From a virus (lineage: Duplodnaviria > Heunggongvirae > Uroviricota > Caudoviricetes), in the IMG/VR virus record IMGVR_UViG_2563366806_000003: a stretch of 43,220 nucleotides of DNA; one strand, written 5' to 3'. The notes under the pieces were generated by a model. That model saw nothing but the letters and a program-made list of their open reading frames with translations. It was not told where the DNA came from and searched no databases. The first letter of the stretch is position 1. Each line of letters begins with the position of its first letter. Shown here piece after piece: positions 3,164 through 43,220 of this stretch. The position numbers and the translations under genes were made by a program.

Positions 3164-3645
3164 CACTTCACCTCCTGCTGTGGTGCTGCTGCAATCATCG
3201 CGCGGTATGCAGCCTGCATGTCGTTGTCATCATCGTCTGTGTACGGAGCCGAATCCCATGCTGCACGCATATCCGGAGTAAGCTCAACCGGCACCATCAC
3301 CCAACCATCCGGAATCACCGGACAGTTGCCGCTCACAGCCTCCTGAAAGCGTCCAAGCTCCACGTACTCCTGACATGACCACCCGCCATCAATAAAATCG
3401 CGAGCTTCAACAGCGTCGAAAGTGAACGATGTTACACCTCCAGTTGGTGAGGTTAAGCCGTACAGGTCTGCTACCAGCTTAAACTGTGTGGCTGTTATGG
3501 TGCCCTCATTGGCGAGGGTACCATCCGCTTCGAGTGATGCCAGCGCGATACGCGCCAGTGCAGAAGCCTCACCACATTGAACGTGGTCAGTTTCGATAAT
3601 TTGCTGTAACTGCTCTTTGGTGAATTCTTTGGTGATAGTGCTCAT
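3163..3645 (-). CDS. Hypothetical phage early protein, 160 aa
   Basis: ORF in operon context with coupled start/stop overlaps; no recognised motif. Confidence 0.5.
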   Translation of the reverse strand: MSTITKEFTKEQLQQIIETDHVQCGEASALARIALASLEADGTLANEGTITATQFKLVADLYGLTSPTGGVTSFTFDAVEARDFIDGGWSCQEYVELGRFQEAVSGNCPVIPDGWVMVPVELTPDMRAAWDSAPYTDDDDNDMQAAYRAMIAAAPQQEVK

Positions 3646-3646
3646 A

Positions 3647-4783
3647 TCACTCCCCCTTCACGCCAATGCCAGCGGCGCGGTCAATACGTTCAATTTCTGC
3701 CAGAATAAGAGCGCCAGCTTTTACTAAGTCGCGGCGTGCTCCTGATTGCTTCCACCAGTCAGGAGACCACGGCCAATGTGCTGGAGTGGAGAAACCTTGG
3801 TTGTGCGCATGAATTGCGTAACAAGCCGCTGCATCTGCTAATTCGCTATTTTGATATGCGTTGTCATGTTCAGGAGTCCATCCTTCAACCGACTGTTGCC
3901 GCTGGCGTTCTGCTACCACATCAAGAATTGCGGGATTGAATGCGCCCCCCTCCAGTTCTGCTATGCGCTTCTCTGCGGCTTCCAACTCATCCAGCATCGC
4001 CAGCACGGTAGTGGGGTTTGCTGCGGAGTTCAGCGCGTTCAAGGCAGTGATATCTGCATCAAGCTGAGTTCCTTCTGCCAGTGAGATATCGAAAATGTCA
4101 TCAGGCGGCATAACACTAAGGCGCTCATGTTCGCCAACTGCTGCCGCTGCGATTTCACGCAGCGCCTGTTTGTCGATGTTGCTCATTGGACTGCCTCCTT
4201 TACGAAGCTGTTCGGCGATATCTTCGAGAACGCCATCAGAGAATGAGCGATCAAAATGGCTTTCCGGCGCATTAGTCATAAACTCAGTAGAGGTAAGGAT
4301 CATCCGGGCAATATCCGCGGCGTTCTTCGCAGTATCATCAATAAAACCAGCTTTCCAGGCTGCCAACATTCTGTTCGCCACAAAATAAGCGCCTTCCTTG
4401 CGTGCTTCAGTCTTCCCTTCAGCCAGAAAAGCATCGGTGGCTGGGGTTTTGATTTCGTTAAGCGCATCACTGAATCCACCACGCTCCATACCTAGCTCTG
4501 CTTCGTAATCGGCATCGAATGCAGCGTCTTTGCAGAACTTCTTCAGCTTTGCATTCTCCGCAGCCAGCGCTGAAAACTTCTCGTGTGCCAACTTAACAGC
4601 TGCATCAGCCTGCTTAATTGACTCAATCGCTTTCTGGTGGTCTTCGTACAGAGCCGAAATCTTGGCCTCCGCTTCAGCAAATTTACGCACCAGATATTCA
4701 GCGTTTGTTTCGTTCACTTTCAGATCTCGCGGTACACATTTCCCGCGAAGAAACCCTTCCATTTCGAAAACATTCATGCGCAT
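3647..4783 (-). CDS. Ead/Ea22-like early protein with coiled-coil region and DUF550-like (possible nucleotide pyrophosphohydrolase) C-terminal domain
   Basis: 378-aa ORF; C-terminal …EGWTPEHDNAYQNSELADAAACYAIHA… resembles the DUF550 family common in lambdoid early-left regions (recalled, not searched). Confidence 0.5.
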   Translation of the reverse strand: MRMNVFEMEGFLRGKCVPRDLKVNETNAEYLVRKFAEAEAKISALYEDHQKAIESIKQADAAVKLAHEKFSALAAENAKLKKFCKDAAFDADYEAELGMERGGFSDALNEIKTPATDAFLAEGKTEARKEGAYFVANRMLAAWKAGFIDDTAKNAADIARMILTSTEFMTNAPESHFDRSFSDGVLEDIAEQLRKGGSPMSNIDKQALREIAAAAVGEHERLSVMPPDDIFDISLAEGTQLDADITALNALNSAANPTTVLAMLDELEAAEKRIAELEGGAFNPAILDVVAERQRQQSVEGWTPEHDNAYQNSELADAAACYAIHAHNQGFSTPAHWPWSPDWWKQSGARRDLVKAGALILAEIERIDRAAGIGVKGE

Positions 4784-5337
4784 TTGCGTAACTCCGATAA
4801 CTCGTTAAAACGTTCCATAAACATCCCATAGGCATGGCCTGGCGACAGTGGAATAACTTTGAACATCTCTGTTGCCGGGATACCTTCCAGTACAGGCCAG
4901 AAAGAGCCATCATCAAGCCCGAGATCGCGGCGTTCGGTTGCCAGCATGATGAGATCGGCATATTTCACGGGCGTACTCATAACCGGGGGTAACCCGTATT
5001 TCTCACGGATTACGGCGTCTATTTTTTCTTCCATCCGTTTATAGTCAGGAAGAAGGCGTTTCAGTGGTGCGGGAATGTCCTGGCAATACGCTTCTGTTGC
5101 ATCATGCATTAACGCTTCAAAAGCAAATTCGTGCGGTACCAGCTGGCTGCAAAGCACCGCATGTTGGGCGACGCTGTAGAAGTGTGAAAGATGTCCTGCA
5201 AAGCGACAGATATTTGAAAGGGAAACCGCGATATCGTTAATAACGATGTCATCTTTATTTATCCTGTCATAATAAAAATGCTTCCCGGAAAAAGTTTTAA
5301 TAAATGACATTTTGTTCTCCACGTATATGCGCTGCAC
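4774..5337 (-). CDS. HD-domain phosphohydrolase (YfdR-like 5'-deoxynucleotidase)
   Basis: …AQHAVLCSQL…EALMHDATEAY… HD-type motif pattern; same position and order as yfdR in the CPS-53 yfdP-yfdQ-yfdR cluster. Confidence 0.65.
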   Translation of the reverse strand: MQRIYVENKMSFIKTFSGKHFYYDRINKDDIVINDIAVSLSNICRFAGHLSHFYSVAQHAVLCSQLVPHEFAFEALMHDATEAYCQDIPAPLKRLLPDYKRMEEKIDAVIREKYGLPPVMSTPVKYADLIMLATERRDLGLDDGSFWPVLEGIPATEMFKVIPLSPGHAYGMFMERFNELSELRKCA

Positions 5338-5437
5338 CGCGCTGAATTCTGGTAAAAAGAATCCCTCACCATCCGGCGATTATTGAGTAAATTACGTTTC
5401 CATAAATGCCCCCGCAGGGGCATTTGCAGTAATGAAA

Positions 5438-6262
5438 TCAGGCGGTGAAAGTACCAATAAAGGTTTCTACTTTGCTGTCCTTGAATTTCTCAACAAGCAG
5501 ATCACGAAATTCGTTAGCCATTTCTTCCTGCACCGCCTCCAGCTGAATAATGCGCAGAACCAGTACCGGACGATCGCCAGTGATAATGCTGAGGCGTAAT
5601 TTAAACGGACGTTCTTTCAGACCTTCAAACGGAATGCATTTAAATTCAAATGCCACTGGCATAATGTCTTTGGTCTTCGCTTCGACAGACTCCATCAGGG
5701 AGCGTTTGCCGCTGAAGTCATTATCTTCAAAATCAGCGGTCTGGTTTGCTTCAATCGTGATTTTACGGACCGCCGCAGCCGCTTTTGTTGCCTGAATGGT
5801 GTCACCATTAGCATCAAAGCCCACAAGGTAGTCGGCCCAGTCTTCAATCCATTCTGCCAGTGATTTCTGGGAGTTACGCTCGCCATTAACAGACAACAGA
5901 GCAGAGAACGGTGCTGTCTTTTTCAGTTTGAGAGTGGCGGTGTTATCTGCGTGACCTGGTTCATCAATAGTACCCAGGTTAAGCACACTGACGGCACGCA
6001 TATTATCAGCATCGATAAAGCAGCGGGTGCCTTCATCTGCAAGATCTTTAGAATAACGGGTAAAGTCATCGATGCTGGCAGTGGAAAGCGCACCACGGAA
6101 ACGGAAGCGATTTAAATTAAATTTTTCCAGATCATGAATGCGGAAATTCTCAGGCAATGCCACAGCATCGGCACCAATCTTACTGATAATTTCATTAACA
6201 CCCTGAGCAGAAATAAGGGCATGGATTTGATTAATTGCGGTTGCGTCTAAGTTCTGAGACAT
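5438..6262 (-). CDS. YfdQ-family (DUF2303) phage protein
   Basis: 274-aa ORF of the same length and context as E. coli prophage YfdQ. Confidence 0.6.
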
Positions 6263-7799: not shown

Positions 7800-8453
7800 T
7801 CAAAAATCCATTATTACTTGTTTGACAAGACCAACTATTCTGCAGTTCTCACCGCATTCAATAGTTTTATAGTTAGGATTTAGTGGGACGAGATACCTGT
7901 TCGGCCAGTCCTCAACAAATTTTTTGAGTGTCGCTTCTTGCCCACCATTGATATGGGCAACAACGATTTTTCCGTTAATACACTCTGTATCAATAATATC
8001 TGGCTCTACGATAACGATAGAACCTTCTGGTATCGATGGTGAGCCGAGGGGATTGGTCATTGAATCACCACGGACCCGTAGTGCAAATGCCATTTCTGAT
8101 ACAAGGGCGGTAGTATAAACCCACTCTTCAGCATCTTCTTTCCTGACACCAGGCTCCGTCATTGTCCATGAACCCGCCTGAACCCACGAGATGAGGGGGA
8201 CTTTTTTAACTGCGAATATTTCAGGTTTTAGATTTATCTTTGGTTCAGGCGAGCCTTTTCCGCTAACAAGCCACAGAGGATCGCATTTAAGTGCGTTGGC
8301 TAGGGCTTGAAGGTTGGCTCCATTTGGTTGGTAGTCGTCCTTTTCCCATCCAGTAACCGTGACACGGTTCACACCAGTCAAATCAGCCAGTGCTTGTTGT
8401 GTCAGGTTCAGTTCTTTTCGCCTTTGGCGAATACGATCACTCATGTTCATCAT
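7800..8453 (-). CDS. CI-like prophage repressor (N-terminal XRE-type HTH, C-terminal S24 LexA-like peptidase domain)
   Basis: …LNLTQQALADLTGVNRVTVTGWE… HTH; C-terminal …LRVRGDSMTNP… and …KKF… S24 self-cleavage motifs; divergent from the Cro-like gene with operators between. Confidence 0.85.
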   Translation of the reverse strand: MMNMSDRIRQRRKELNLTQQALADLTGVNRVTVTGWEKDDYQPNGANLQALANALKCDPLWLVSGKGSPEPKINLKPEIFAVKKVPLISWVQAGSWTMTEPGVRKEDAEEWVYTTALVSEMAFALRVRGDSMTNPLGSPSIPEGSIVIVEPDIIDTECINGKIVVAHINGGQEATLKKFVEDWPNRYLVPLNPNYKTIECGENCRIVGLVKQVIMDF

Positions 8454-8476
8454 GTAGGCAATCCTACCACATGCCC

Positions 8477-8517
8477 ATGTAGGATTCTTGACATTGGTAT
8501 GTTGGATATCCTACATT
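8477..8517 (+). promoter_or_regulatory. Right operator/promoter region (OR/pR-like)
   Basis: TTGACA at 8488-8493; 18-bp palindromic operator atgttggatatcctacat (8499-8516) over the -10 region; degenerate half-site copy at 8477-8494. Confidence 0.55.
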
Positions 8518-8548
8518 TCTGCTTAACGTAATTTAACGGGAGACAGAA

Positions 8549-8746
8549 ATGCGGAAATCCGACGTGATTAATTATTTCGGCGGAGTTTGTAAAACCGCCG
8601 AAGCCCTAGGTATTAAGCATCCGTCTGTTTCAGAGTGGCCTGAGATTATTCCTGAAGGCCGAGCGTACCAGTTAGAAAAAATTACTAACGGGAAACTGAA
8701 AGTTGACGTGTCTTTATATCAAAAGACTAACAGTGCTGCGGCATAA
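8549..8746 (+). CDS. Cro-like DNA-binding protein
   Basis: 65-aa protein divergent from the repressor; …GGVCKTAEALGIKHPSVSEW… HTH typical of Cro/YdaS-like proteins. Confidence 0.7.
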   Translation: MRKSDVINYFGGVCKTAEALGIKHPSVSEWPEIIPEGRAYQLEKITNGKLKVDVSLYQKTNSAAA

Positions 8747-8773
8747 AAACACCACAGAAATGAGGAATTAACC

Positions 8774-9358
8774 GTGGGTAAAGAACCTGAATGGAAAGTT
8801 GATAAACAACCAGCATGGCTGGTGGCAGCAATACGAAGAACGATTGCTGATTTACCTCATGGCTATGAGGAAGCAGCAGAAATTCTTGGTTTGTATAAAT
8901 CTGATGATATCACCCCAGCAAAAGATCAATTGCATAACAGACTGCGTAGCGGTGGGGATCAAATTTTTCCACTTGAGTGGGCCATGGTTTTACAGGATGC
9001 CAGTGGTACCAGGCATGTAACAGATGCAATAGCCCGTCGTAGTAATGGGGTGTTTGTGCCGCTGGTGGTCATTGATGACATTGACAATGGTGACATTAAT
9101 CAGCGGCTGATGGAGTCAATAGAATGGATTGGCAAGCATTCCCAGTACTTACGCAAGGCAACTGCTGATGGAGTTATTGACCAAGCTGAGCGTGAGCAAA
9201 TCGAAGAGAACAGCTACCAAGTAATGGCGAAGTGGCAGGAGCATTTAACACTGTTATTTCGTGTTTTTTGTGCGCCGGAAAAGAGTAACGCCCGCGAGTG
9301 TGCAGCTCCGGGCGTCGTGGCGTCGATTGCTTCTGGTTGTGGAGAAACTAACGCATGA
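8774..9358 (+). CDS. CII-like / YmfL-like early regulatory protein
   Basis: 194-aa ORF directly after cro; size and position match e14 YmfL / CP76-type CII-like regulators (recalled). Confidence 0.45.
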
Positions 9359-9693
9359 ACAGTTTAACAACACACTACCGTCGCTCGCAACTGATTGCGC
9401 TTCCTGTACCGGGTGGAAAAGCGAAGGTGGAGTATTGCTATGCAGTGAATGTACCAGGTGACAGGGAAATTGTAACCCACAGCTTTGCAGAGTGGGCTGT
9501 GGGGGATTTCAACCGGCAGAAGGAGACAGTCCTTTGCGACAAGTTAACCGCTGGTTCAAAGATCACTACGGAGTGCCCGTCAGAGTCATTCGTTGGGAAC
9601 CGGAAACACAACGGGTTATCTACCTCCGCGAAGGCTATGAGTATGAGTGCTTCAGCCCGCTCGAACAGTTTCGTCGTAAATTCAGGGAAATAG
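9355..9693 (+). CDS. Hypothetical early protein, 112 aa (YmfM-like by size and position)
   Basis: ATGA start/stop overlap with the upstream gene; C-terminal third is low-complexity and overlaps a protein-like alternative frame (9492-9713). Confidence 0.4.
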
Positions 9694-9702
9694 AGGTCGG
9701 TC

Positions 9703-10644
9703 ATGAGCACTAAATTAACCGGCTATGTATGGGATGGTTGCGCAGCGTCAGGCATGAAATTATCCAGCGTGGCAATTATGGCCCGCCTGGCTGATTTCAG
9801 TAATGACGAAGGTGTGTGCTGGCCATCAATTGAAACCATTGCCCGCCAGATTGGCGCGGGGATGAGTACCGTCAGAACGGCTATCGCACGGCTGGAAGCA
9901 GAAGGCTGGTTAACGCGTAAGGCGCGTCGCCAGGGTAACCGCAATGCGTCGAATGTTTATCAGCTTAACGTTGCGAAGCTTCAGGCAGCGGCATTTTCTC
10001 AACTGTCAGATTCTGACCAGTCAAAATCTGACGCATCAAAATCTGACCCGTCAAAATTTGATGCGTCGAAATCTGGCAAAAAAGCGGGTTTTCACCCGTC
10101 AGAATCTGGCGGGGATCCGTCAGTAAAATCAAAACATGATCCGTCAGATAAAAAACCTTCTCGTCCGGACGCTTCGCAACCGGACACGCAGACGGCTGAA
10201 CAGGATTTTTTAACTCGCCATCCTGATGCGGTTGTATTCAGCCCTAAAAAACGCCAGTGGGGGACGCAGGATGATTTGACCTGCGCACAGTGGCTCTGGA
10301 AAAAAATCATCGCCCTGTACGAGCAGGCCGCCGAATGTGACGGCGAGGTGGTTCGTCCCAAAGAACCGAACTGGACAGCCTGGGCAAACGAAATTCGCCT
10401 GATGTGTGTGCAGGATGGTCGTACTCATAAACAAATCTGCGAGATGTACAGCCGCGTCAGTCGCGATCCGTTCTGGTGCCGTAACGTGCTCAGCCCGTCG
10501 AAGCTGCGGGAAAAATGGGATGAGCTTTCCCTGCGCTTATCGCCGTCCGTCAGCACATACACAGAAAAACGTGAAGATCCGTACTTCAAATCCAGTTACG
10601 ACAACGTGGACTACAGCCAGATCCCGGCAGGATTCAGGGGGTGA
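9703..10644 (+). CDS. Replication initiator (O-like, N-terminal HTH) with internal iteron-encoded repeat region
   Basis: N-terminal HTH (…MSTVRTAIARLEAEGWL…); central SKSD/PS repeats encoded by iterons at 10005-10160. Confidence 0.65.
   Translation: MSTKLTGYVWDGCAASGMKLSSVAIMARLADFSNDEGVCWPSIETIARQIGAGMSTVRTAIARLEAEGWLTRKARRQGNRNASNVYQLNVAKLQAAAFSQLSDSDQSKSDASKSDPSKFDASKSGKKAGFHPSESGGDPSVKSKHDPSDKKPSRPDASQPDTQTAEQDFLTRHPDAVVFSPKKRQWGTQDDLTCAQWLWKKIIALYEQAAECDGEVVRPKEPNWTAWANEIRLMCVQDGRTHKQICEMYSRVSRDPFWCRNVLSPSKLREKWDELSLRLSPSVSTYTEKREDPYFKSSYDNVDYSQIPAGFRG
10005..10160. repeat. Putative replication origin iterons inside the initiator gene
   Basis: At least 7 direct repeats of about 15 bp (tcaaaatctgac / ccgtcagaatctg variants) followed by an A-rich stretch. 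Confidence 0.5.
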
Positions 10645-11135
10645 TCATGAGTCTTTTGAATGAAGTTCAGAAATTCATTGAAGCCCATCCGGGGTGTACT
10701 TCCGGAGACATTGCGGATGCTTTTGCAGGTTACTCACGGCAGCGCGTTCTGCAGTCAGCAAGCAAGTTACGTCAGAGTGGGCGTGTGGCTCACCGTTGTG
10801 AAGGAGATACACGCAGACATTTCTCGCGCCTGACTGAGAGAGCGCAGGAGCCGGAACCACAACCAGTTTGTGAAACCAGACCTGTGCGCAAGTTCTATGT
10901 CGGCACTAACGCCCCCCGGGTGATTTTGTGCCTGACCCGCCAGGCTGAAGAACTGGAGTCGAGGGGCTTATACCGTCGTGCTGCAACGGTGTGGATGGAG
11001 GCATTCCGTGAAAGCCACTCCCAGCCAGAACGAAACAATTTTCTGGCGCGTCGTGAACGGTGTTTACGGAAAAGCAGCAAGCGCGCTGCATCGGGTGAAG
11101 AGTGGTATCTGTCAGGGAATTACGTGGGGGCTTAA
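10641..11135 (+). CDS. PerC-family-like regulatory protein with N-terminal extension
   Basis: C-terminal …AEELESRGLYRRAATVWMEAF… matches the PerC signature as recalled. Confidence 0.45.
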   Translation: MIMSLLNEVQKFIEAHPGCTSGDIADAFAGYSRQRVLQSASKLRQSGRVAHRCEGDTRRHFSRLTERAQEPEPQPVCETRPVRKFYVGTNAPRVILCLTRQAEELESRGLYRRAATVWMEAFRESHSQPERNNFLARRERCLRKSSKRAASGEEWYLSGNYVGA

Positions 11136-11461
11136 TGACTACGTTAACTCAATGCCAGCAGCAGGTGCTGGATATGCTGATTTCTTATCAGAAAGAACGT
11201 GGCTTCCCGCCAACCAATCAGGAGGTGGCAACCATGCTGGGATACCGTTCAGTGAATGCAGCGGTGGAGCATCTTCGCGCACTGGAGAAAAAAGGCGTCA
11301 TCACGATAAAGCGTGGCGTGGCCCGGGGCATCACGCTTCATACCGCGGTGAAGGACGACGACAGCGAGGCGGTCGGGATTATCCGCGCACTGCTTGCCGG
11401 TGAGGCAAACGCCAGGCTGCGTGCAGCCCACTGGTTACATGAGAGGGGCCTGAAAGTATGA
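11135..11461 (+). CDS. LexA N-terminal DNA-binding-domain-only protein (winged HTH, no S24 peptidase domain)
   Basis: LTQCQQQVLDMLISYQKERGFPPTNQEVATMLGYRSVNAAVEHLRALEKKGVITIKRGVARGITL aligns residue-by-residue with the E. coli LexA N-terminal domain; protein ends after about 108 aa. Confidence 0.65.
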   Translation: MTTLTQCQQQVLDMLISYQKERGFPPTNQEVATMLGYRSVNAAVEHLRALEKKGVITIKRGVARGITLHTAVKDDDSEAVGIIRALLAGEANARLRAAHWLHERGLKV

Positions 11462-11847
11462 AGCTAATACTGCCTTTTCCGCCCAGCGTGAACACGTACT
11501 GGCGACACCCCAACAAAGGGGCGCTTGCAGGTAAGAGCCTGATAAGCGCGGCGGGGCGAAAATTCCAGAGCGCAGCGTGTGCAGCCATCATTGAGCAGTT
11601 ACGTCGTCTGCCGAAACCAACGTCGGCACCAGCTTCAGTGGAGATCGTGTTGTTTCCTCCGGATAACCGGCTTCGCGATCTGGACAACTATAACAAGGCG
11701 CTGTTTGACGCCCTGACCCACGCGGGTGTGTGGGTGGACGACAGCCAGGTGAAAAGAATGCTGGTGGAGTGGGGGCCGGTTATCCCGGAAGGGAAGGTCG
11801 AAATCACTATCAGTAAGTACGAGAAAACGGCGGGTGCAGCCGCCTGA
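11458..11847 (+). CDS. rusA: RusA Holliday-junction resolvase
   Basis: MKLILPFPPSVNTYWR… and …RDLDNYNKALFDALTHAGVWVDDSQV… are hallmark RusA motifs. Confidence 0.9.
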   Translation: MKLILPFPPSVNTYWRHPNKGALAGKSLISAAGRKFQSAACAAIIEQLRRLPKPTSAPASVEIVLFPPDNRLRDLDNYNKALFDALTHAGVWVDDSQVKRMLVEWGPVIPEGKVEITISKYEKTAGAAA

Positions 11848-11866
11848 TTAAGAGGAGAAACGAAGT

Positions 11867-12676
11867 ATGAATAATCTGATGGTTATTGATGGTATTGAAG
11901 TTCGTCGTGATGCTTATGGGCGTTACAGCCTGAACGATCTGCATCGCGCAGCAGTAGCATCTGGTGCAAATGCCAGAACCAAGGAGCCAGGAAAGTTTCT
12001 TTCCAGCCAACAAACTGTTGAGCTTGTTCATGAATTAACCAACACCCAGAATTTGGGTGTTGACCCGGTGAGTGTGATTCATGGGGGAAATGAACGGGGA
12101 ACGTATGTCTGTAAGGAACTGGTGTATGCCTATGCAATGTGGATCAGCCCGTCATTCCATCTGAAGGTGATCCGTACTTTCGATATGGTAACCAGCGCAC
12201 CGGAAAAATTATCCGGACAGGCTGCTGACAAGATGCAGGCTGGCGTGATTCTGCTGGACTTTATGCGCCGGGAGTTAAATCTGTCTAACTCATCTGTGCT
12301 TGGGGCCTGTCAGAAACTCCAGGAGGCTGTTGGCTTACCGAATCTGGCACCGCGCTATGCCATTGATGCACCTGCTGACGCGCCTGATGGCTCAAGCCGC
12401 CCGACGCTGTCGCTGAGTGCACTGCTGAAGCAGTATGGTATCCGCCTGACGGCTAATCAGGCATATCACCAGATGGTGAAGCTGGGGATCGTCGAGCAGC
12501 GCGAACGATACAGCCGTACCGGGATTAACAACATCAAAAAATTCTGGTCGCTGACGGCGAAAGGCTGCATGTTCGGCAAGAACATCACCAGTCCCGCAAA
12601 TCCGCGTGAGACGCAGCCGCATTTCTTCGAATCCCGATTCCCTGAGCTGTTAAAGCTGCTCGATACCGTTCATTGA
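11867..12676 (+). CDS. KilA-N domain protein (putative antirepressor-like)
   Basis: N-terminal KilA-N pattern (…IDGIEVRRDAYGRYSLNDLHRAA…). Confidence 0.6.
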   Translation: MNNLMVIDGIEVRRDAYGRYSLNDLHRAAVASGANARTKEPGKFLSSQQTVELVHELTNTQNLGVDPVSVIHGGNERGTYVCKELVYAYAMWISPSFHLKVIRTFDMVTSAPEKLSGQAADKMQAGVILLDFMRRELNLSNSSVLGACQKLQEAVGLPNLAPRYAIDAPADAPDGSSRPTLSLSALLKQYGIRLTANQAYHQMVKLGIVEQRERYSRTGINNIKKFWSLTAKGCMFGKNITSPANPRETQPHFFESRFPELLKLLDTVH

Positions 12677-12677
12677 G

Positions 12678-13673
12678 GTGACCGTGAGAGCACTACTGAC
12701 CCCTGAAATAGCCCCGCGTATGGGGATTGTATTGTTCAGACCAGGTTCAGAGCTGATGCCCCTGTTTATGCAGGGGCGTGTCCTGCTGGAGCCTGAGCCG
12801 GAACGTTATTCATCTTTCGCCAGTGGTGCCGTTCCGGCGGCATCACAACCGCTGGCGGATGATCCTGCCGTTAGGGCCGTGTTCCGCAATGAGGCAGTGA
12901 TCCGTCGTGCTGGTGGCGTGGAATGTCTTGAAAGCTGGTTACTTCGTGAAAAAGGCTGCCAGTGGCCTCATTCCGACTGGCACAGCGAGAACATGACCAC
13001 AATGCGACACGCGCCGGGCGCGATCCGTCTGTGCTGGCACTGCGATAACCAGCTGCGCGATCAGTTCACGGAACGGCTGGAATCAATGGCAACGGATAAC
13101 TGTGCCCGCTGGGTGTTGTCTGTAGTCCGTCTGGATCTCGGTTTTGATGATAACCATGCCGTGACAATGCCGGAACTGTGCTGGTGGCTGATTCGTAATG
13201 ACCTGGCGGATGCCTTACCGGAAAGTGCAGCCCGTAAGGCACTGAGATTACCGAAGCCTGTTGTGCCGTCTGTCACCCGGGAAAGTGACCTTGTGCCTTC
13301 GGTTCCTGCCACCAGCATCATCCAGGATAAGGCGAAAAAGGTGCTGGCGCTGAAAGTGGATCCGGAGTCGCCGGAGTCTTTTATGTTACGCCCAAAACGC
13401 CGCCGCTGGGTTAATGAAAAGTACACGCGCTGGGTTAAGACACAGCCGTGTGCATGTTGTGGAAAGCCTGCTGATGATCCCCACCACCTGATAGGCCACG
13501 GTCAGGGTGGAATGGGTACAAAAGCGCATGACCTCTTTGTGTTGCCTTTGTGCAGAAAGCATCACGACGAGCTGCATGCGGATACCGTGGCATTTGAAGA
13601 GAAGTATGGCTCTCAGCTGGAGCTGATATTTCGTTTTATCGATCGTGCGCTGGCAATTGGCGTATTGGCGTAA
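12678..13673 (+). CDS. DUF968-family lambdoid protein with C-terminal HNH-like Zn-binding motif
   Basis: …CACCGKPADDPHHL… and …LPLCRKHHDELH… in the C-terminus; typical nin-region position. Confidence 0.55.
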   Translation: MTVRALLTPEIAPRMGIVLFRPGSELMPLFMQGRVLLEPEPERYSSFASGAVPAASQPLADDPAVRAVFRNEAVIRRAGGVECLESWLLREKGCQWPHSDWHSENMTTMRHAPGAIRLCWHCDNQLRDQFTERLESMATDNCARWVLSVVRLDLGFDDNHAVTMPELCWWLIRNDLADALPESAARKALRLPKPVVPSVTRESDLVPSVPATSIIQDKAKKVLALKVDPESPESFMLRPKRRRWVNEKYTRWVKTQPCACCGKPADDPHHLIGHGQGGMGTKAHDLFVLPLCRKHHDELHADTVAFEEKYGSQLELIFRFIDRALAIGVLA

Positions 13674-36516: not shown

Positions 36517-37266
36517 ATGCATCGTATAGACACGAAAACCGCGCAGAAGGATAAGTTCGGCGCGGGTAAGAACGGTTTTACCCGTGGTAATCCCCAGACT
36601 GGTACGCCTGCCACCGATCTGGATGATGACTACTTTGACATGTTGCAGGAGGAGCTTTGCAGCGTTGTGGAGGCATCCGGTGCCAGCCTGGAGAAGGGGC
36701 GGCATGACCAGTTGCTTACCGCACTTCGCGCACTGCTGTTAAGCCGCAATAATCCGTTTGGTGATATCAAATCGGACGGCACGGTACCAACGGCTCTCGA
36801 AAACCTTGGTTTGGGAGAAGGTTCGGCATTACCCGTTGGTGTGCCTGTTCCGTGGCCTTCCGCCACTCCGCCAACAGGCTGGCTGAAATGCAACGGTGCG
36901 GCTTTTTCTGCTGAAGAATACCCGGAACTGGCAAAGGCTTACCCGACAAATAAATTGCCTGATTTACGTGGTGAGTTCATTCGTGGCTGGGATGACGGAA
37001 GAGGAATTGATACTAACCGTAGCTTGCTTTCATCACAGGGCGATGCCATTCGAAATATAATTGGTGCATTAGTGGATGTCAGGTTTAATACCTACCCTTC
37101 TGATTCTGGCGTTTTTACAACCAGCGTCATCGGAGATGCTTCATCTGATTCAATTAAAGGTGGTTATGCAAAGCGAGTAACATTCGATGCTTCCAGAGTT
37201 GTTCCAACTGCAAACGAAAACCGACCTCGTAACATTGCCTTTAATTATATCGTGAGGGCTGCCTGA
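36517..37266 (+). CDS. Tail fibre protein (constant N-terminus + variable C-terminus inside the invertible segment)
   Basis: N-terminus [44 protein letters not shown]… is typical of e14/Mu-type tail fibres; recombination site lies at codons [10 protein letters not shown]. Confidence 0.8.
36795..36821. repeat. Left recombination site of the invertible segment (gix/hix-like)
   Basis: tctcgaaaaccttggtttgggagaagg; the 15-mer ttggtttgggagaag recurs inverted at 38604-38618. Confidence 0.7.
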
Positions 37267-37868
37267 TGAATAAAGCCGTATTAAATAACGAACTCATTGC
37301 CATAAAAGCGGGAGACATTACCATTTATAATTATGATGGTGAAACGCGGGAATATATTTCCACATCAACTGAATATCTTGCGGTTGGCGTCGGTATACCG
37401 GCATGTTCTTGTTTAGATGCACCAGTTACACATAAAGCTGGTTATGCAATCTGCCGTTCTGCAGATTTTAACTCATGGGAATATGTGCCAGACCATCGCG
37501 GTGAAATCATCTATAGCACCGAAACAGGAGAATCAAAAGAAATCACAGCTCCGGGTGATTACCCTGAAAATACAACCACTATCGCCCCGTTAACGCCATT
37601 CGATAAATGGGATGGTGAGAAATGGGTGACCGATACTGAGGCACAGCATCGCGCCGCAGTAGACGCGGCAGAAGCACAGCGTCAGTCACTGATTGATACT
37701 GCAATGGCTTCCATTAGTCTGATTCAACTGAAATTACAGGCCGGGCGGAAACTGACGCAGGCAGAAACAACCCGGCTTAACGCTGTGCTGGATTACATTG
37801 ACGCGGTGACGGCAACAGATACCAGCACCGCGCCGGATGTCATCTGGCCTGAACTGCCGGAGGAGTAG
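37266..37868 (+). CDS. Tail fibre assembly protein (expressed orientation)
   Basis: ATGA-coupled to the tail fibre gene; C-terminal conserved Tfa motif also present in the inverted paralog. Confidence 0.75.
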   Translation: MNKAVLNNELIAIKAGDITIYNYDGETREYISTSTEYLAVGVGIPACSCLDAPVTHKAGYAICRSADFNSWEYVPDHRGEIIYSTETGESKEITAPGDYPENTTTIAPLTPFDKWDGEKWVTDTEAQHRAAVDAAEAQRQSLIDTAMASISLIQLKLQAGRKLTQAETTRLNAVLDYIDAVTATDTSTAPDVIWPELPEE

Positions 37869-38280
37869 GCCATTCAATATCTGGTGCACTGGAAGTATCG
37901 ACCAGCTCCAGTGCGTCCAGATAATCCAGCCACAAATTATATTGCGCCAGTTCCTCACCTTTCAGACGACCAATAGCCGCTTTACCAACCCATTGTCTAC
38001 TGTTCATATAATCGTTGGCCTGATTAATCAATTGCTGCTTTTTAGTTTCGGCTGATGCAATTTGTTCTTCACGTGTTGGCGGTGGAACATCTGCCCATGC
38101 TGGCATTCCATCGTCTCCGGTAATTCTGTACTTACCGTCAGGCGGCGTATCATGGAAATATTCCCTGAAAATAGCTTCGTCTATATCCACGCCTTTACCT
38201 TCGGGCCATTGGCCTTTTGCAGCGTAAACAGACTGGAGGGCATAAGGGTACGCCAGATTATCAACATACAAATATTTCAT
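37840..38280 (-). CDS. Alternative tail fibre assembly protein (silent orientation)
   Basis: Convergent with the first Tfa; similar C-terminal end (…DTSSAPDIEWPTPP… vs …DTSTAPDVIWPELP…). Confidence 0.7.
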   Translation of the reverse strand: MKYLYVDNLAYPYALQSVYAAKGQWPEGKGVDIDEAIFREYFHDTPPDGKYRITGDDGMPAWADVPPPTREEQIASAETKKQQLINQANDYMNSRQWVGKAAIGRLKGEELAQYNLWLDYLDALELVDTSSAPDIEWPTPPAVQAR

Positions 38281-38628: not shown

Positions 38629-38683
38629 ATGCAGAAATAGCGCGCAAATGGCATCGTTCCTGTTTTTGTCAGGAGGAGCTATC

Positions 38684-39240
38684 ATGCTTATTGGCTATGT
38701 TCGCGTATCAACAAATGACCAGAACACCGATCTACAACGTAATGCGTTGAACTGTGCAGGATGTGAGCTGATTTTTGAAGACAAGATAAGCGGTACAAAG
38801 TCCGACAGACCAGGACTGAAAAAGCTGCTCAGGACATTATCGGCAGGTGACACGCTGGTGGTCTGGAAACTGGACCGACTGGGGCGCAGTATGCGGCATC
38901 TTGTCGTGCTGGTGGAAGAGTTGCGCGAACGTGGCGTTAATTTTCGCAGCCTGACGGATGCTATTGATACCAGCACACCAATGGGGCGCTTTTTCTTTCA
39001 TGTGATGGGTGCCCTGGCTGAAATGGAGCGAGAGTTTATTGTCGAACGTACTAGGGCGGCTTTGCCGCAGCACGACAAGAAGGGAGGAACGGTGGGCGAA
39101 AGCCAAAGCTGACAGTAGAACAATGGGGGCAGGCTGGCAGGTTGATTGAATCGGGAATATATCAGCAGCAAGTCGCACTGATTTATGATCTGGGTATTTC
39201 AACGGTGTATAAAAAATTCCCTGTAGCAAGTAAACCATAG
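38684..39240 (+). pseudogene. Gin/Pin/Hin-family serine DNA invertase, disrupted by a single-base frameshift
   Basis: MLIGYVRVSTNDQNTDLQ… catalytic domain runs to 39112; the HTH domain (GRKPKLTVEQWGQAGRLIE…VALIYDLGISTVYKKFP) continues in another frame to 39240; join point at agggcggctttgcc (about 39052-39062) consistent with loss of one G. Confidence 0.75.
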
Positions 39241-39266
39241 CCTTACGCCACATTGATGATCGCGGA

Positions 39267-39962
39267 TTATGCACTATTTTTAGGTCTTGTAACCCGAGGT
39301 GGGAGTTGTTTGGTTATATGTTCAAGTGATTTTTTGCCCAAGATAGTTCTTTGGACAAAACTTTCTATAGCTTCTAGCATTTGTTCGAACTCACTTTTAT
39401 TCGGGCTCCAACTGCGATGTGCGGCGGCGTTTCCTGCATCAATTACTGAAGATATAACGCATGCCTCAGTGTCGCCTATGACTCCATCTTGTTTTAATTT
39501 TTCAACTTTTTCACCAAGCGGCAAACCGGGGTGAATTTGTAACAGTTCAGCAGTTCGATCAAAAATCGTCCGTAAACCGATGGACGAAAGAATGAAATGG
39601 TCAGAAGTATATGAAGAATACATTTCATTAAATATTTGAAAGAGCTGACGATCAACTGATTCAAGCTTGGATAACCATATCGGAGCTTGAAATGTTTCAG
39701 CGGCAGGATAGGTAGTGATCATATCTATAGGCGTTTCTACAAATTCACCATCACGATATTCGTGGGTAGTATGCTCACTGAAGTGTTCGTTGTGGTGATA
39801 GAAGACAGTATCACAGCCATTGCATTGGAGTAGGTGATGGTAATGGTACCCATAAACTGGATATTGGGAATCCTCCCAGCTAGTGGTTAGCTTCCCATGC
39901 ACAGTGCAGTTACGTAACCCACCGCATGTAGGGCAAAGAGCCTTGAGTATTTCCTTTTTCAT
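39267..39962 (-). CDS. Hypothetical Zn-ribbon protein (231 aa), candidate defence/exclusion cargo; function not recognised
   Basis: AT-rich ORF antisense to the tail operon; N-terminal CPTCGG…C and CNGC cysteine pairs; the rest matches nothing I recognise. Confidence 0.55.
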   Translation of the reverse strand: MKKEILKALCPTCGGLRNCTVHGKLTTSWEDSQYPVYGYHYHHLLQCNGCDTVFYHHNEHFSEHTTHEYRDGEFVETPIDMITTYPAAETFQAPIWLSKLESVDRQLFQIFNEMYSSYTSDHFILSSIGLRTIFDRTAELLQIHPGLPLGEKVEKLKQDGVIGDTEACVISSVIDAGNAAAHRSWSPNKSEFEQMLEAIESFVQRTILGKKSLEHITKQLPPRVTRPKNSA

Positions 39963-40029
39963 AAAGTCTCTGATTCTATATGTAGGTTAAGACCACTATT
40001 AGCTATACGGACCTAATAATCAATCGTGT

Positions 40030-40056
40030 GCAGATACAAAAAAGCCCGTATAGCGG
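40030..40056 (-). terminator. Intrinsic terminator between the dinI-like gene and the 231-aa gene
   Basis: cccgctatacggg hairpin followed by a T-run on the minus strand. Confidence 0.45.
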
Positions 40057-40310
40057 GATTTCATGTCACTAAGGGCCGCGGCTACTTTGCGTATCTTTTT
40101 TGTCTTCTCACCGTCTGGCCGGTATTTTGCTGAGACTGCTTATTTCCAGTTTTTACTAGTGCTGTACTGGTACTGCCCAATCATGATTGGTGGGGGACGG
40201 AGTTGAGACCGCAGCCACGTCGTATGCAAGAACGCGCTGCGGTTGGCTGGTGAACTTTCGATAGTGCGAGTATTGAATGATTTCCAGCCGTTACAGATTT
40301 TACGTGTTTA

Positions 40311-40559
40311 TTAGTGAACAAACCACTCGTCAGCAGATTCCCAGGTATCTTTCAGAGTCTCCTGAACAAAAGTTTTTGCAGAATCCTTATCTGCGGTGCG
40401 TGTAACAGAAAGGCCATCATTGCTGGTGGCTTTTACTAACACCTCAACATCGTCATAACGCTTACTGATGCGTCGGGTTAATTCTTCCTTTAACGCATCC
40501 ACAGCACCGGTTGGCATTTTAGTCATTTTTTCTTTGGCTATGCAGATTTCAATACGCAT
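40311..40559 (-). CDS. dinI: DinI-family protein
   Basis: MRIEICIAK…, and C-terminal …[15 protein letters not shown]… match host DinI; two LexA boxes immediately upstream. Confidence 0.85.
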
Positions 40560-40620: not shown

Positions 40621-41718
40621 TCAAGAGGTCTTATTTCTGCTCCTTTGGAGCTCTTCAAAACGATTATGTAAAGATTTCGGATACAGTTCGGTATATACCT
40701 GCCATAGCACGTTTAATGAACGATGCCCTGTAACTTGGGCGACTTCCTCAATACTAAAACCAGCCTCAAATAAGCGACTTGCCCCTTCTCTACGCAAATC
40801 ATGGTATCGCAGATCCTTAATACCTAATTTGCTTCTTACTCTCTGAAATCCCGCAGTAACAGAAGTGCTGTTATATGGAAAAATGAATTCCGATTTTTGG
40901 GGCTGTCGTTGGACGATATCCCAGGCTTCCCCAAGCAAGGCTACTTTCATGTGGTTGCCTTCCTTTTTGCGTGGATCTTTCCTGTCTCTTACGAGTATAG
41001 ATTTTTGTTCCTGGTCGAGATCTTCCCATCGTAACCGGCATACTTCTCCGATTCGCATACAGGACCATACAGAAAATTTGAGGATATCAACGAACGGAAT
41101 TTTTGAGCATTTATGAGTAGATCGTTGTTGAAGGCCTGCAATGAGCATGTCCAGTTCATCAGATGCTGGTCTACGATTACGACGGTTTGATTTACCAATC
41201 AAACCAAGTTTAAGTAGATATGGGCGAGCGCTTTTCGCCGGGTTTGATGTGTAATTAATTCCGTATACAGGTTTGGCCGCATCCAGAACACTGCCAAGAT
41301 AACTAACATCGTGGCTGACTGTTGCAGGACCTGCACCAGCGTTGTTTCTTAGCCTGCAATGTTCAATTACGTCATTTTCTGTCAGTTCAGATAGTTTGAT
41401 CGCGGAGATGTCACTATCCATAAGCAGTTCCAGCACATATCTTTTAGTACGGCCTGCTTTACCTCCGGCATTTGGGTCATTTAAATATTTGTGTAGTAAG
41501 TCACGGACTGTAAGTCCGTCAACTGCATTTGATGATGGAATACCATATAGATCTAATTCCATCACTTTCTGTGTGCCCCATGTTTTGGCATGAGCATGTT
41601 TAGGGAATGTTTTGCTTTCCCTGTAAGTGATAACACCTTTTTCTTTGATAATCACATTACAGCGATAGCGTGGTGTGCCATCGGATTTTAGTCGTTTCTC
41701 TATGTTATAGTACGCCAT
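40621..41718 (-). CDS. int: Tyrosine integrase (dusA-specific type)
   Basis: 365 aa with C-terminal catalytic region (…HDLRREGASRLFEAG…VTGHRSLNVLWQVY…); adjacent and divergent to dusA. Confidence 0.9.
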   Translation of the reverse strand: MAYYNIEKRLKSDGTPRYRCNVIIKEKGVITYRESKTFPKHAHAKTWGTQKVMELDLYGIPSSNAVDGLTVRDLLHKYLNDPNAGGKAGRTKRYVLELLMDSDISAIKLSELTENDVIEHCRLRNNAGAGPATVSHDVSYLGSVLDAAKPVYGINYTSNPAKSARPYLLKLGLIGKSNRRNRRPASDELDMLIAGLQQRSTHKCSKIPFVDILKFSVWSCMRIGEVCRLRWEDLDQEQKSILVRDRKDPRKKEGNHMKVALLGEAWDIVQRQPQKSEFIFPYNSTSVTAGFQRVRSKLGIKDLRYHDLRREGASRLFEAGFSIEEVAQVTGHRSLNVLWQVYTELYPKSLHNRFEELQRSRNKTS

Positions 41719-41806
41719 TACACGACCTCGTTATTTCGGGTTCCCATAAAACGTGGGAACCTGTGCGGGAACCTAACGCGAGAAAAATAGCCTGAAATGT
41801 TCAAAA

Positions 41807-42844
41807 ATGCACGATAATCATGAAACACAAAAAATTAATCAAACCAGCGTGATGCCTGAAAAAACTGGTGTTTACTGGAATTCTCGGTTTAGCATTGCTC
41901 CTATGCTCGACTGGACGGACAGACATTGCCGCTATTTCTTGCGTCTGCTTTCCCGCAATACGTTGCTGTATACTGAAATGGTAACTACAGGGGCGATTAT
42001 TCACGGTAAAGGTGATTACCTGGCGTATAGTGAAGAAGAACATCCGGTAGCGTTGCAACTCGGCGGTAGCGATCCGGCGGCGCTGGCGCAGTGTGCGAAG
42101 CTGGCAGAAGCGCGTGGATATGATGAGATCAACCTGAATGTCGGCTGCCCGTCTGACCGGGTGCAGAACGGCATGTTTGGTGCGTGTCTGATGGGTAATG
42201 CGCAGCTGGTTGCCGACTGCGTGAAAGCGATGCGCGATGTGGTGTCGATTCCGGTGACGGTGAAAACGCGTATTGGCATCGACGACCAGGACAGCTATGA
42301 ATTTCTCTGCGATTTCATCAACACCGTTTCCGGCAAAGGCGAGTGTGAGATGTTCATCATCCATGCACGTAAAGCCTGGCTTTCGGGGTTAAGTCCGAAA
42401 GAAAACCGTGAGATCCCGCCGCTCGATTATCCGCGTGTGTATCAACTGAAGCGTGACTTTCCGCATCTGACAATGTCGATTAACGGTGGTATCAAGTCGC
42501 TGGAAGAGGCCAAAGCACACCTGCAACATATGGATGGCGTGATGGTCGGGCGCGAGGCGTATCAGAATCCGGGTATTCTGGCGGCGGTAGACCGGGAGAT
42601 CTTTGGTTCCTCGGATATCGATGCCGATCCGGTGGCGGTAGTGCGCGCCATGTATCCGTACATTGAGCGTGAACTCAGCCAGGGGACGTATCTCGGTCAT
42701 ATTACCCGGCATATGTTGGGCTTGTTCCAGGGTATTCCTGGCGCGCGGCAGTGGCGGCGTTATTTAAGTGAAAACGCCCATAAAGCGGGTGCAGACATTA
42801 ATGTGCTGGAACACGCGCTCAAACTGGTGGCGGATAAGCGTTAA
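41807..42844 (+). CDS. dusA: tRNA-dihydrouridine(20/20a) synthase DusA; first ~32 codons supplied by the prophage
   Basis: 345 aa Dus-family protein; N-terminus [35 protein letters not shown] differs from the displaced native N-terminus at 1071-1175. Confidence 0.9.
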
Positions 42845-42977
42845 CTTTTCACCAAAAAATAGTCAAATTCACCACGCCCTGCGCACCGTCGCGGGGCGTT
42901 TTGCTGTTAAATCAATAGATTATTTTTGGCATGATTCTTGTAATGCCAGCAAGAGATTTCATATTTGGGAGTGCATC

Positions 42978-43220
42978 ATGCTGGAACTACTTTTTGTGAT
43001 TGGCTTTTTTGTCATGCTGATGGTCACCGGCGTTTCGTTGCTGGGCATTATCGCCGCGCTGGTTGTGGCGACGGCCATTATGTTCCTCGGCGGTATGCTG
43101 GCATTGATGATTAAGTTGCTGCCGTGGTTACTACTGGCGATTGCGGTGGTGTGGGTTATTAAGGCGATTAAAGCACCAAAAGTGCCGAAATATCAGCGTT
43201 ATGACCGCTGGCGTTACTAA
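42978..43220 (+). CDS. pspG: Phage shock protein G
   Basis: 80-aa hydrophobic protein MLELLFVIGFFVMLMVTGVS… directly downstream of dusA as in E. coli; GGGAG RBS; the track ORF's upstream extension is not credible. Confidence 0.8.
   Translation: MLELLFVIGFFVMLMVTGVSLLGIIAALVVATAIMFLGGMLALMIKLLPWLLLAIAVVWVIKAIKAPKVPKYQRYDRWRY

Follow-up and report, generated by a model that had tools for sequence, protein, structure and literature searches.

Gene content and composition of the locus

The window, that is, the whole stretch of 43,220 nucleotides of Caudoviricetes DNA that was analysed, carries on its minus strand, antisense to the tail genes, an open reading frame for a protein of 231 amino acids, exactly as the initial annotation had described it (Table 1). 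The protein is identical to WP_001514810.1, which the annotation of E. coli S56 lists as a 'DUF4145 domain-containing protein', and its Pfam DUF4145 score together with its 1,513 relatives establishes it as a real gene, far beyond what chance would produce. The gene order is a resolvase/invertase gene (38648–39112), the DUF4145 gene, dinI (40311–40559), a tyrosine integrase gene (40621–41718) and dusA (41807–42844), with the DUF4145 gene oriented in the same way as dinI and the integrase gene; on the far side of the invertase lie a Mu-like baseplate and an invertible tail-fibre segment. Pfam assigns the neighbours to Resolvase, DinI, Phage_integrase, Dus, Caudo_TAP and Mu Gp48.

Some details of the surroundings deserve mention in their own right. 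The pin-type DNA invertase (38648–39240, plus strand) is truncated to 154 amino acids, its reading frame stopping inside the Resolvase N-terminal domain or directly behind it, and an identical copy in S56 is annotated as 'frameshifted'. Two opposed Caudo_TAP genes adjoin it (37266–37868 on the plus strand and 37840–38280 on the minus strand), and the tail-fibre inversion switch next to the truncated invertase is, to judge from these sequences, probably frozen. The prophage is integrated at dusA (40621–43220), the integrase gene standing directly upstream of an intact-looking dusA that is followed by a pspG-like open reading frame. In strain PEC41 the same dinI–int–dusA arm is joined to a different tail module.

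The gene had been singled out initially as markedly AT-rich and as a terminator-delimited unit, and each of these descriptions was borne out in part. Its GC content is 41.5% (GC3 34%), compared with 55.5% in the tail/baseplate region and 51.0% in the whole window, but this composition is not peculiar to it: dinI (43.0%) and int (42.6%) have comparable values, so that the bias belongs to the whole right arm and not to the DUF4145 gene alone. As for the boundaries of the unit, a hairpin followed by a U6 run is present upstream (z −1.4) and looks like a weak terminator or insulator, but the terminator scan gave nothing convincing downstream of the gene (z −0.5). A promoter scan of the stretch between the start codon and this hairpin found no convincing consensus promoter.

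Table 1. Features of the zinc-ribbon/DUF4145 gene and of its cassette, in window coordinates
Feature	Position	Strand	Basis or remark
Coding sequence, 231 aa, ATG start, zinc-ribbon + HEPN single-gene module	39267..39962	−	ORF; Pfam; PHROG
β-rich zinc-ribbon domain, residues 1–85, presumed sensor	39708..39962	−	β-strands between residues 5 and 85
Cys4 ligands	C10 39933–39935; C13 39924–39926; C47 39822–39824; C50 39813–39815	−	conserved, putative Zn ligands
Interdomain linker, residues 86–96	39675..39707	−	P86, P94 and W96 nearly invariant
HEPN/DUF4145 helical domain, residues 97–211	39330..39674	−	signature D175-A-G-N-A-A-A-H182-R183-x-W-x-P
Key residues	H182 39417–39419; R183 39414–39416; R131 39570–39572	−	
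Basic C-terminal tail, residues 212–231, low confidence	39270..39329	−	P221 conserved; Arg/Lys-rich
5' untranslated and putative promoter stretch of the cassette	39963..40032	−	promoter assignment inferred
Short GC hairpin (CCCG-CUAUA-CGGG) then U6, inside the cassette	40033..40057	−	−7.4 kcal/mol, z −1.37
Variable cargo cassette, approximate extent (~1 kb)	39250..40208	.	invertase flank to 'capsid remnant'/dinI flank

A mobile cassette in the pin–dinI slot

The gene is present, at 99% identity or more, in 34 of 5,426 complete E. coli genomes. Both of its flanks are common to thousands of genomes, and the points at which the similarity breaks, at ~39,050–39,250 on the invertase side and at ~40,208 on the dinI side, delimit a cassette of ~1 kb. 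The pin–dinI slot in which this cassette lies (window ~39250–40208; 8068–12918 in locus L001 and 3333–6100 in locus L090) varies in content. The slot of S56 contains the identical DUF4145 gene, then a gene for a 366-aa protein with 363 of 365 residues identical to DS-38 (WP_001313577.1) and, beyond it, a partial integrase and an HNH_2 protein, while that of TUM12357 holds an unrelated membrane protein of 365 aa without a Pfam match (WP_001542677.1). The DUF4145 gene and DS-38 stand next to each other in only 2 of the 5,426 genomes. Sporadic occurrence, a variable slot, atypical composition and the lack of a conserved partner are all found here, as is expected of moron or defence cargo.

At the dinI side of the slot there is also a 'capsid protein' pseudogene remnant of ~100 nt (window ~40208–40310), which abuts the 3' end of dinI, is common to more than 3,000 E. 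coli genomes and constitutes the right-hand recombination boundary of the cassette.

The N-terminal zinc-ribbon domain

The AlphaFold2 model of the protein (16 homologs, mean pLDDT 83) consists of a β-rich N-terminal domain and C-terminal helices that span residues 97–219, with pLDDT values below 50 at residues 211–217. The four cysteines at positions 10, 13, 47 and 50 are kept in 153–162 of 164 relatives, C47 being invariant in the 140-row alignment A2, and they form two CxxC knuckles located at β-hairpin turns of a confident model (pLDDT 94.6). The earlier interpretation of the cysteine cluster as a zinc ribbon thus stands for these four residues, but C19, which had also been listed, varies (A, C or S). 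A fold search carried out with the N-terminal domain returned neither a zinc-ribbon match nor a RAZR fold match.

This domain is the more variable part of the protein, with a mean pairwise identity of 28% versus 39% for the C-terminal domain among 140 relatives, and the same is true among close relatives (54% versus 65%).

Two lineages show peculiarities in this region. The zinc ribbon of the enterobacterial clade is rich in histidine, with nine His in the 46 residues from 22 to 67 (39762–39899, minus strand); its strings HHLLQC and EHFSEHTTH are kept in close relatives and not family-wide, and the stretch may form a further site for metal binding or a surface for recognition peculiar to this lineage. 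A subgroup of ~400 aa (P0065, P0119, P0121, P0139, P0146, P0149 and P0150) carries an extra N-terminal module of ~180 aa, made of a second zinc ribbon (CPxCG...CxRCG) and then a helical region, before the standard zinc-ribbon–HEPN body.

The DUF4145 domain and its active site

The C-terminal DUF4145/HEPN domain that the initial annotation had suspected is confirmed. Pfam DUF4145 (PF13643) aligns with residues 115–199 over positions 4–87 of the 88 of the profile, well above its cutoff (E 8.8e-10; 39 bits against 23.1), and the PF13643 assignment is precomputed for all close homologs; the similarity whose absence from profile searches had been named as counter-evidence is therefore present. The GNAAAH string (G177-N178-A-A-A-H182) is real and corresponds to the DUF4145 signature. 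The protein also matches over its full length PHROG 1305 (E 5e-43), whose label, 'DNA binding protein', comes without a tested function; the NCBIfam search gave nothing meaningful.

The domain has the four-helix up-down bundle fold of HEPN proteins, and the motif histidine, H182, is shared by all 164 sequences; the model puts it where helix 164–181 reaches its C-terminal end. The arginine that is expected five to seven residues before it is missing: positions 175–177 are D/E, A and G (G177 in 161 of 164). One residue further upstream, at position 174 (H−8), Val occurs in 56, Thr in 54 and Ile in 45 of the 164 sequences, and Arg never does. GNAAAH is accordingly an HEPN-type motif as far as its invariant histidine is concerned, but the arginine needed to make up the canonical catalytic motif is missing from it. 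What is conserved in its place is D175-A-G177-[N/S]-A-A-A-H182-R183-x-W185-x-P187, with E200 in a later helix, and a group of residues in helix 2 (R131, T132 and D135), where the model places R131 and D135 in helix 123–140. R131 is present in 164 of 164 sequences and R183 in 159, and D135, W185, P187 and E200 are kept in at least 93%.

Only about 80% of DUF4145 members keep the Rx4-6H motif, and in the PaREP1 and c2405 families, which have kept the histidine and lost the arginine, other conserved basic residues have been proposed to take over (PMC3710099). The PaREP1 structure (2q00/2jpu) is among the top structure matches. By the conservation pattern, R131 in helix 2 and/or R183 probably supply the basic role at the active site. 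In RAZR, a defence protein whose resemblance to the window protein is discussed below, both R146 and H154 are required and R146A abolishes defence (PMC13017515). The counterpart of this pair is incomplete in the 164 sequences, where H182 is present and H−8 is never Arg; since the equivalent position, 174, is Ile, Val or Thr, RNase activity is not guaranteed.

Size, spread and mobility of the family

An exhaustive search of a library of 1.84 billion representatives, clustered at 50% identity, returned 1,513 relatives at E ≤ 1e-3, of which 546 have E ≤ 1e-10 and 74 have E ≤ 1e-30, and the best 150 are nearly all full-length alignments of about 230 aa. At least 137 relatives lie in genomes of GTDB species, which belong to the Gamma-, Beta- and Alphaproteobacteria, Acidobacteriota, Bacteroidota and Chloroflexota. 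A tblastn search of 50,697 phage genomes detected no homolog, a result at odds with the possibility, raised by the initial annotation against its own proposal, that the homologs are mainly conserved structural or regulatory phage genes. Neither the accession WP_001514810.1 nor peptide strings of the protein appear in those parts of the literature and of the DefensePredictor table text that were accessible to searching.

The GC content of the gene is lower than that of the surrounding ±8 kb in 58 of 61 dereplicated loci, the mean difference being 8 points. Across 37 loci, whose 148 nearest neighbours were compared, no neighbouring family recurs in more than five, the upstream regions do not align across genera, and no tandem repeats, Rfam family or tRNA were found.

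A cluster of 16 records (L023, L026–L034, L036–L038, L040, L042 and L046) contains copies with pairwise identities of 80% or more. These records come mostly from different genera of Sphingomonadales, the reference copy (L023) being from Mesorhizobium, and such identity indicates that a common mobile element has recently spread the copies horizontally.

Neighbourhoods in other genera

The homologs of Citrobacter and Enterobacter (about 70% identity) are solo genes located at the ends of P2-like, lambda-like and P22-like prophages, where they adjoin tail-fibre, DinI, UmuD and Gtr genes. The Pseudomonas homolog is inserted in a P2-like tail cluster, between gpR/gpS (tail completion) and gpV/gpW (baseplate), and a Gabija-like pair stands next to the Burkholderia homolog. 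In the raw listing of the 37 loci, the recurrent themes among neighbours are P2 tail genes, restriction of types I, IIG and IV, DrmMI, PDC-S02, mad2 and transposases; the restriction, DrmMI (DISARM), PDC-S02 and mad2 neighbours occur in other phyla, and some loci of the family are chromosomal defence islands far from prophages. The suggestion that the gene is defence cargo gains from the ~1-kb cassette, the variable slot, the DS-38 neighbour in S56 and these homolog loci at prophage ends and beside defence genes.

Regarding the sites themselves, the Pseudomonas insertion (L012, 6850–9719, with similar ones in L013, L019, L024 and L055) is a moron site different from the prophage end used in Enterobacteriaceae. 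In three Enterobacter loci (L005, L006 and L007, at about 5700–5800) an upstream stretch resembles the 3' part of a tRNA (GGTAGCCGGAGTGGGACTTGAACCC...); ARAGORN recognised no tRNA at this stretch, which by its resemblance is probably the remnant of an att site. If so, the DUF4145 gene would be the last gene inside the prophage boundary.

Proposed function and alternative explanations

Anantharaman et al. (2013, PMC3710099) list fusions of zinc ribbons among the architectures of DUF4145, a domain tied to contexts of restriction and abortive infection. PD-T7-4 (RAZR) emerged from a functional selection in E. coli, with the annotation 'Zn finger-HEPN' (Vassallo et al., 2022, PMC9519451). In RAZR, an N-terminal Cys4 domain that resembles zinc ribbons of the RPB9/TFIIS type precedes a DUF4145 HEPN domain. 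The protein, whose mode of action is abortive infection, assembles into 24-mers around ring-shaped phage proteins (SECphi27 Gp77 and the T7 portal) and then cleaves ssRNA non-specifically, its zinc-finger domain being the part that sets specificity and the most variable one (Zhang et al., 2026, PMC13017515). The initial label 'undescribed' has to be softened, since the architecture is known: RAZR/PD-T7-4 is already a characterised defence RNase that combines a zinc finger with DUF4145 (PMC9519451; PMC13017515). Zinc-ribbon–DUF4145 fusions have been on record since 2013 and the validation of RAZR dates from 2022 and 2026, so that the finding is not categorically new.

The explanation that we favour, with a probability of roughly 0.6, is that the gene encodes a stand-alone anti-phage effector of the abortive-infection type, which is carried as 'moron' cargo by a dusA-integrated prophage and works like RAZR/PD-T7-4. 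HEPN domains function in dimeric or oligomeric form, their RNase site being composite and independent of metal, and it is for this reason that RNA cleavage upon activation is proposed. The variable Cys4 zinc-ribbon β-domain would sense a protein or assembly that is specific to infection and would thereby switch on the DUF4145-type HEPN domain, which, as an activated dimer or oligomer, would cleave cellular and phage RNA, bring translation to a stop and abort the infection. The site would be non-canonical, with H182 in its usual position and R131 and/or R183 as substitutes for the lost arginine of the motif. Our analysis thus describes a probable single-gene abortive-infection RNase.

Other explanations have to be weighed against this one, and the nearest in content is that the protein is a divergent orthologue of RAZR/PD-T7-4 with an identical action, in which linear oligomers would wrap large ring-forming phage proteins (the portal or an Erf-like annealase) and the resulting geometry would activate the HEPN RNase. 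Both proteins have the same domain order and size, a DUF4145 domain and a variable N-terminal domain, and 3 of 140 members give marginal matches to the PD-T7-4 HMM (E about 0.02). We nevertheless regard orthology as unlikely. PADLOC, which includes the PD-T7-4 model PDLC04109, does not match the window protein, and this model misses 137 of the 140 relatives, the three that it does match having E ≥ 0.021. Profiles A1 and A2 of the family (16 and 140 members) retrieve no RAZR chain at E ≤ 10 from a copy of the PDB sequences that contains the RAZR–Gp77 entries 9Y6U and 9Y9C (Gp77 is found in it, with E 1e-142), and a DS-38-like probe likewise failed to find the RAZR chain in the PDB sequence set. 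In addition, the essential R146 is replaced here by Ile, Val or Thr. At the level of sequence, the window protein is not a detectable member of the RAZR family, membership being judged here from the PADLOC model and the published residue numbers.

The missing arginine of Rx4-6H also lends itself to the notion of a catalytically dead HEPN domain in a prophage regulator that binds RNA, nucleotides or DNA and is not a nuclease, a role that motif-less HEPN domains can play (PMC3710099) and that the PHROG label would suit. This is improbable given that H182, R131 and R183 hardly vary from phylum to phylum, as befits an active site that has been retained and not a motif-less binder, that there is no HTH domain, that the label carries no tested function, and that the gene is a sporadic cargo with changing neighbours and not a conserved part of any prophage type. 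The changing neighbours bear as well on the idea that the protein is the toxin of a prophage-stabilising toxin–antitoxin module whose antitoxin is an unrecognised small protein or RNA: no neighbour gene is conserved, upstream regions cannot be aligned across genera, tandem repeats and Rfam matches are absent, and the 25 Pfam families that occur most often in the 148 neighbour proteins include no MNT-type nucleotidyltransferase, all of which makes such a module somewhat less probable still. Finally, since HEPN sites are composite across the dimer, the canonical arginine is missing and the protein is phage-borne, it could be imagined as a counter-defence decoy that heterodimerises with host HEPN effectors and poisons them, or that sequesters their activators. 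We consider this very improbable, because the family also occurs in chromosomal defence islands far from prophages, does not co-occur with a specific host HEPN partner and has conserved His and Arg residues that argue for an activity of its own. All four explanations are less likely than a RAZR-like stand-alone effector.

Implications

A wider claim, to which we would give slightly less than an even chance, is that the window protein is the first representative of an anti-phage family which at present escapes defence-finder tools although it is widespread, ranging over Proteobacteria, Acidobacteriota, Bacteroidota and Chloroflexota and counting more than 500 clusters (E ≤ 1e-10). Such a family would have converged on the RAZR layout or diverged from it anciently, with a novel zinc-nucleated β-sheet sensor for other phage triggers and a rewired HEPN site whose arginine comes from R131 or R183.

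If the protein is active, it would represent a second lineage, distinct in sequence, of single-protein immunity based on a zinc ribbon and HEPN, and the RAZR design (variable zinc-finger sensor plus DUF4145 RNase) would be a general and widely distributed solution and not the property of one family. The difference between the sensor domains predicts phage triggers other than those of RAZR, and the active site, arginine-less and otherwise highly conserved, offers a natural test of catalytic rewiring in HEPN RNases. Since PADLOC misses the family, there are gaps in the inventories of defence genes for Enterobacteriaceae prophages and for many alphaproteobacterial genomes. The junction between pin and dinI in these dusA prophages is, moreover, a compact cargo slot in which further systems could be sought.

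Comparison with known systems

By its score, the window protein is a member of Pfam DUF4145 (HEPN superfamily, clan KNTase_C), in which it falls within the minority, of about 20%, that lacks the conserved arginine of Rx4-6H (PMC3710099). PaREP1/8 (PDB 2q00/2jpu) is an archaeal stand-alone HEPN protein, without a zinc ribbon and unrelated in sequence. BxaP (PMC10799925) and Ishtar (bioRxiv 10.64898/2026.07.06.735840) resemble the window protein in that their anti-phage or anti-plasmid action is presumed to be exerted by a DUF4145 HEPN domain, but in both of them this domain is N-terminal and fused to HEAT-like or β/α domains, with no zinc ribbon.

DS-38 is a validated single-gene defence of E. 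coli with HEPN and zinc-finger domains, reported with DefensePredictor (WP_001313577.1; PMC13092281). It shares with the window protein this combination of domains and the same prophage slot, where it directly adjoins the gene in S56. The two proteins are not the same: DS-38 has 366 aa and the opposite order of domains, an N-terminal HEPN domain with a canonical RNRVVH motif preceding a C-terminal multi-Cys region, it has no Pfam DUF4145 match and no detectable homology to the window protein, and in S56 it is in fact the product of the neighbouring gene.

With RAZR the differences lie in the sequence and in the site: the arginine at H−8 (R146 in RAZR) corresponds to Ile, Val or Thr in the window protein, which keeps G-N-x3-H, and the N-terminal domain is larger here (about 85 versus about 65 residues). 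The layout, in turn, is that of RAZR, a Cys4 zinc finger followed by a DUF4145 HEPN domain in ~220 aa. Each is the product of a single gene, of 231 and about 219 aa, respectively, with an N-terminal domain that is the more variable of the two, and each is located on mobile elements near integrases.
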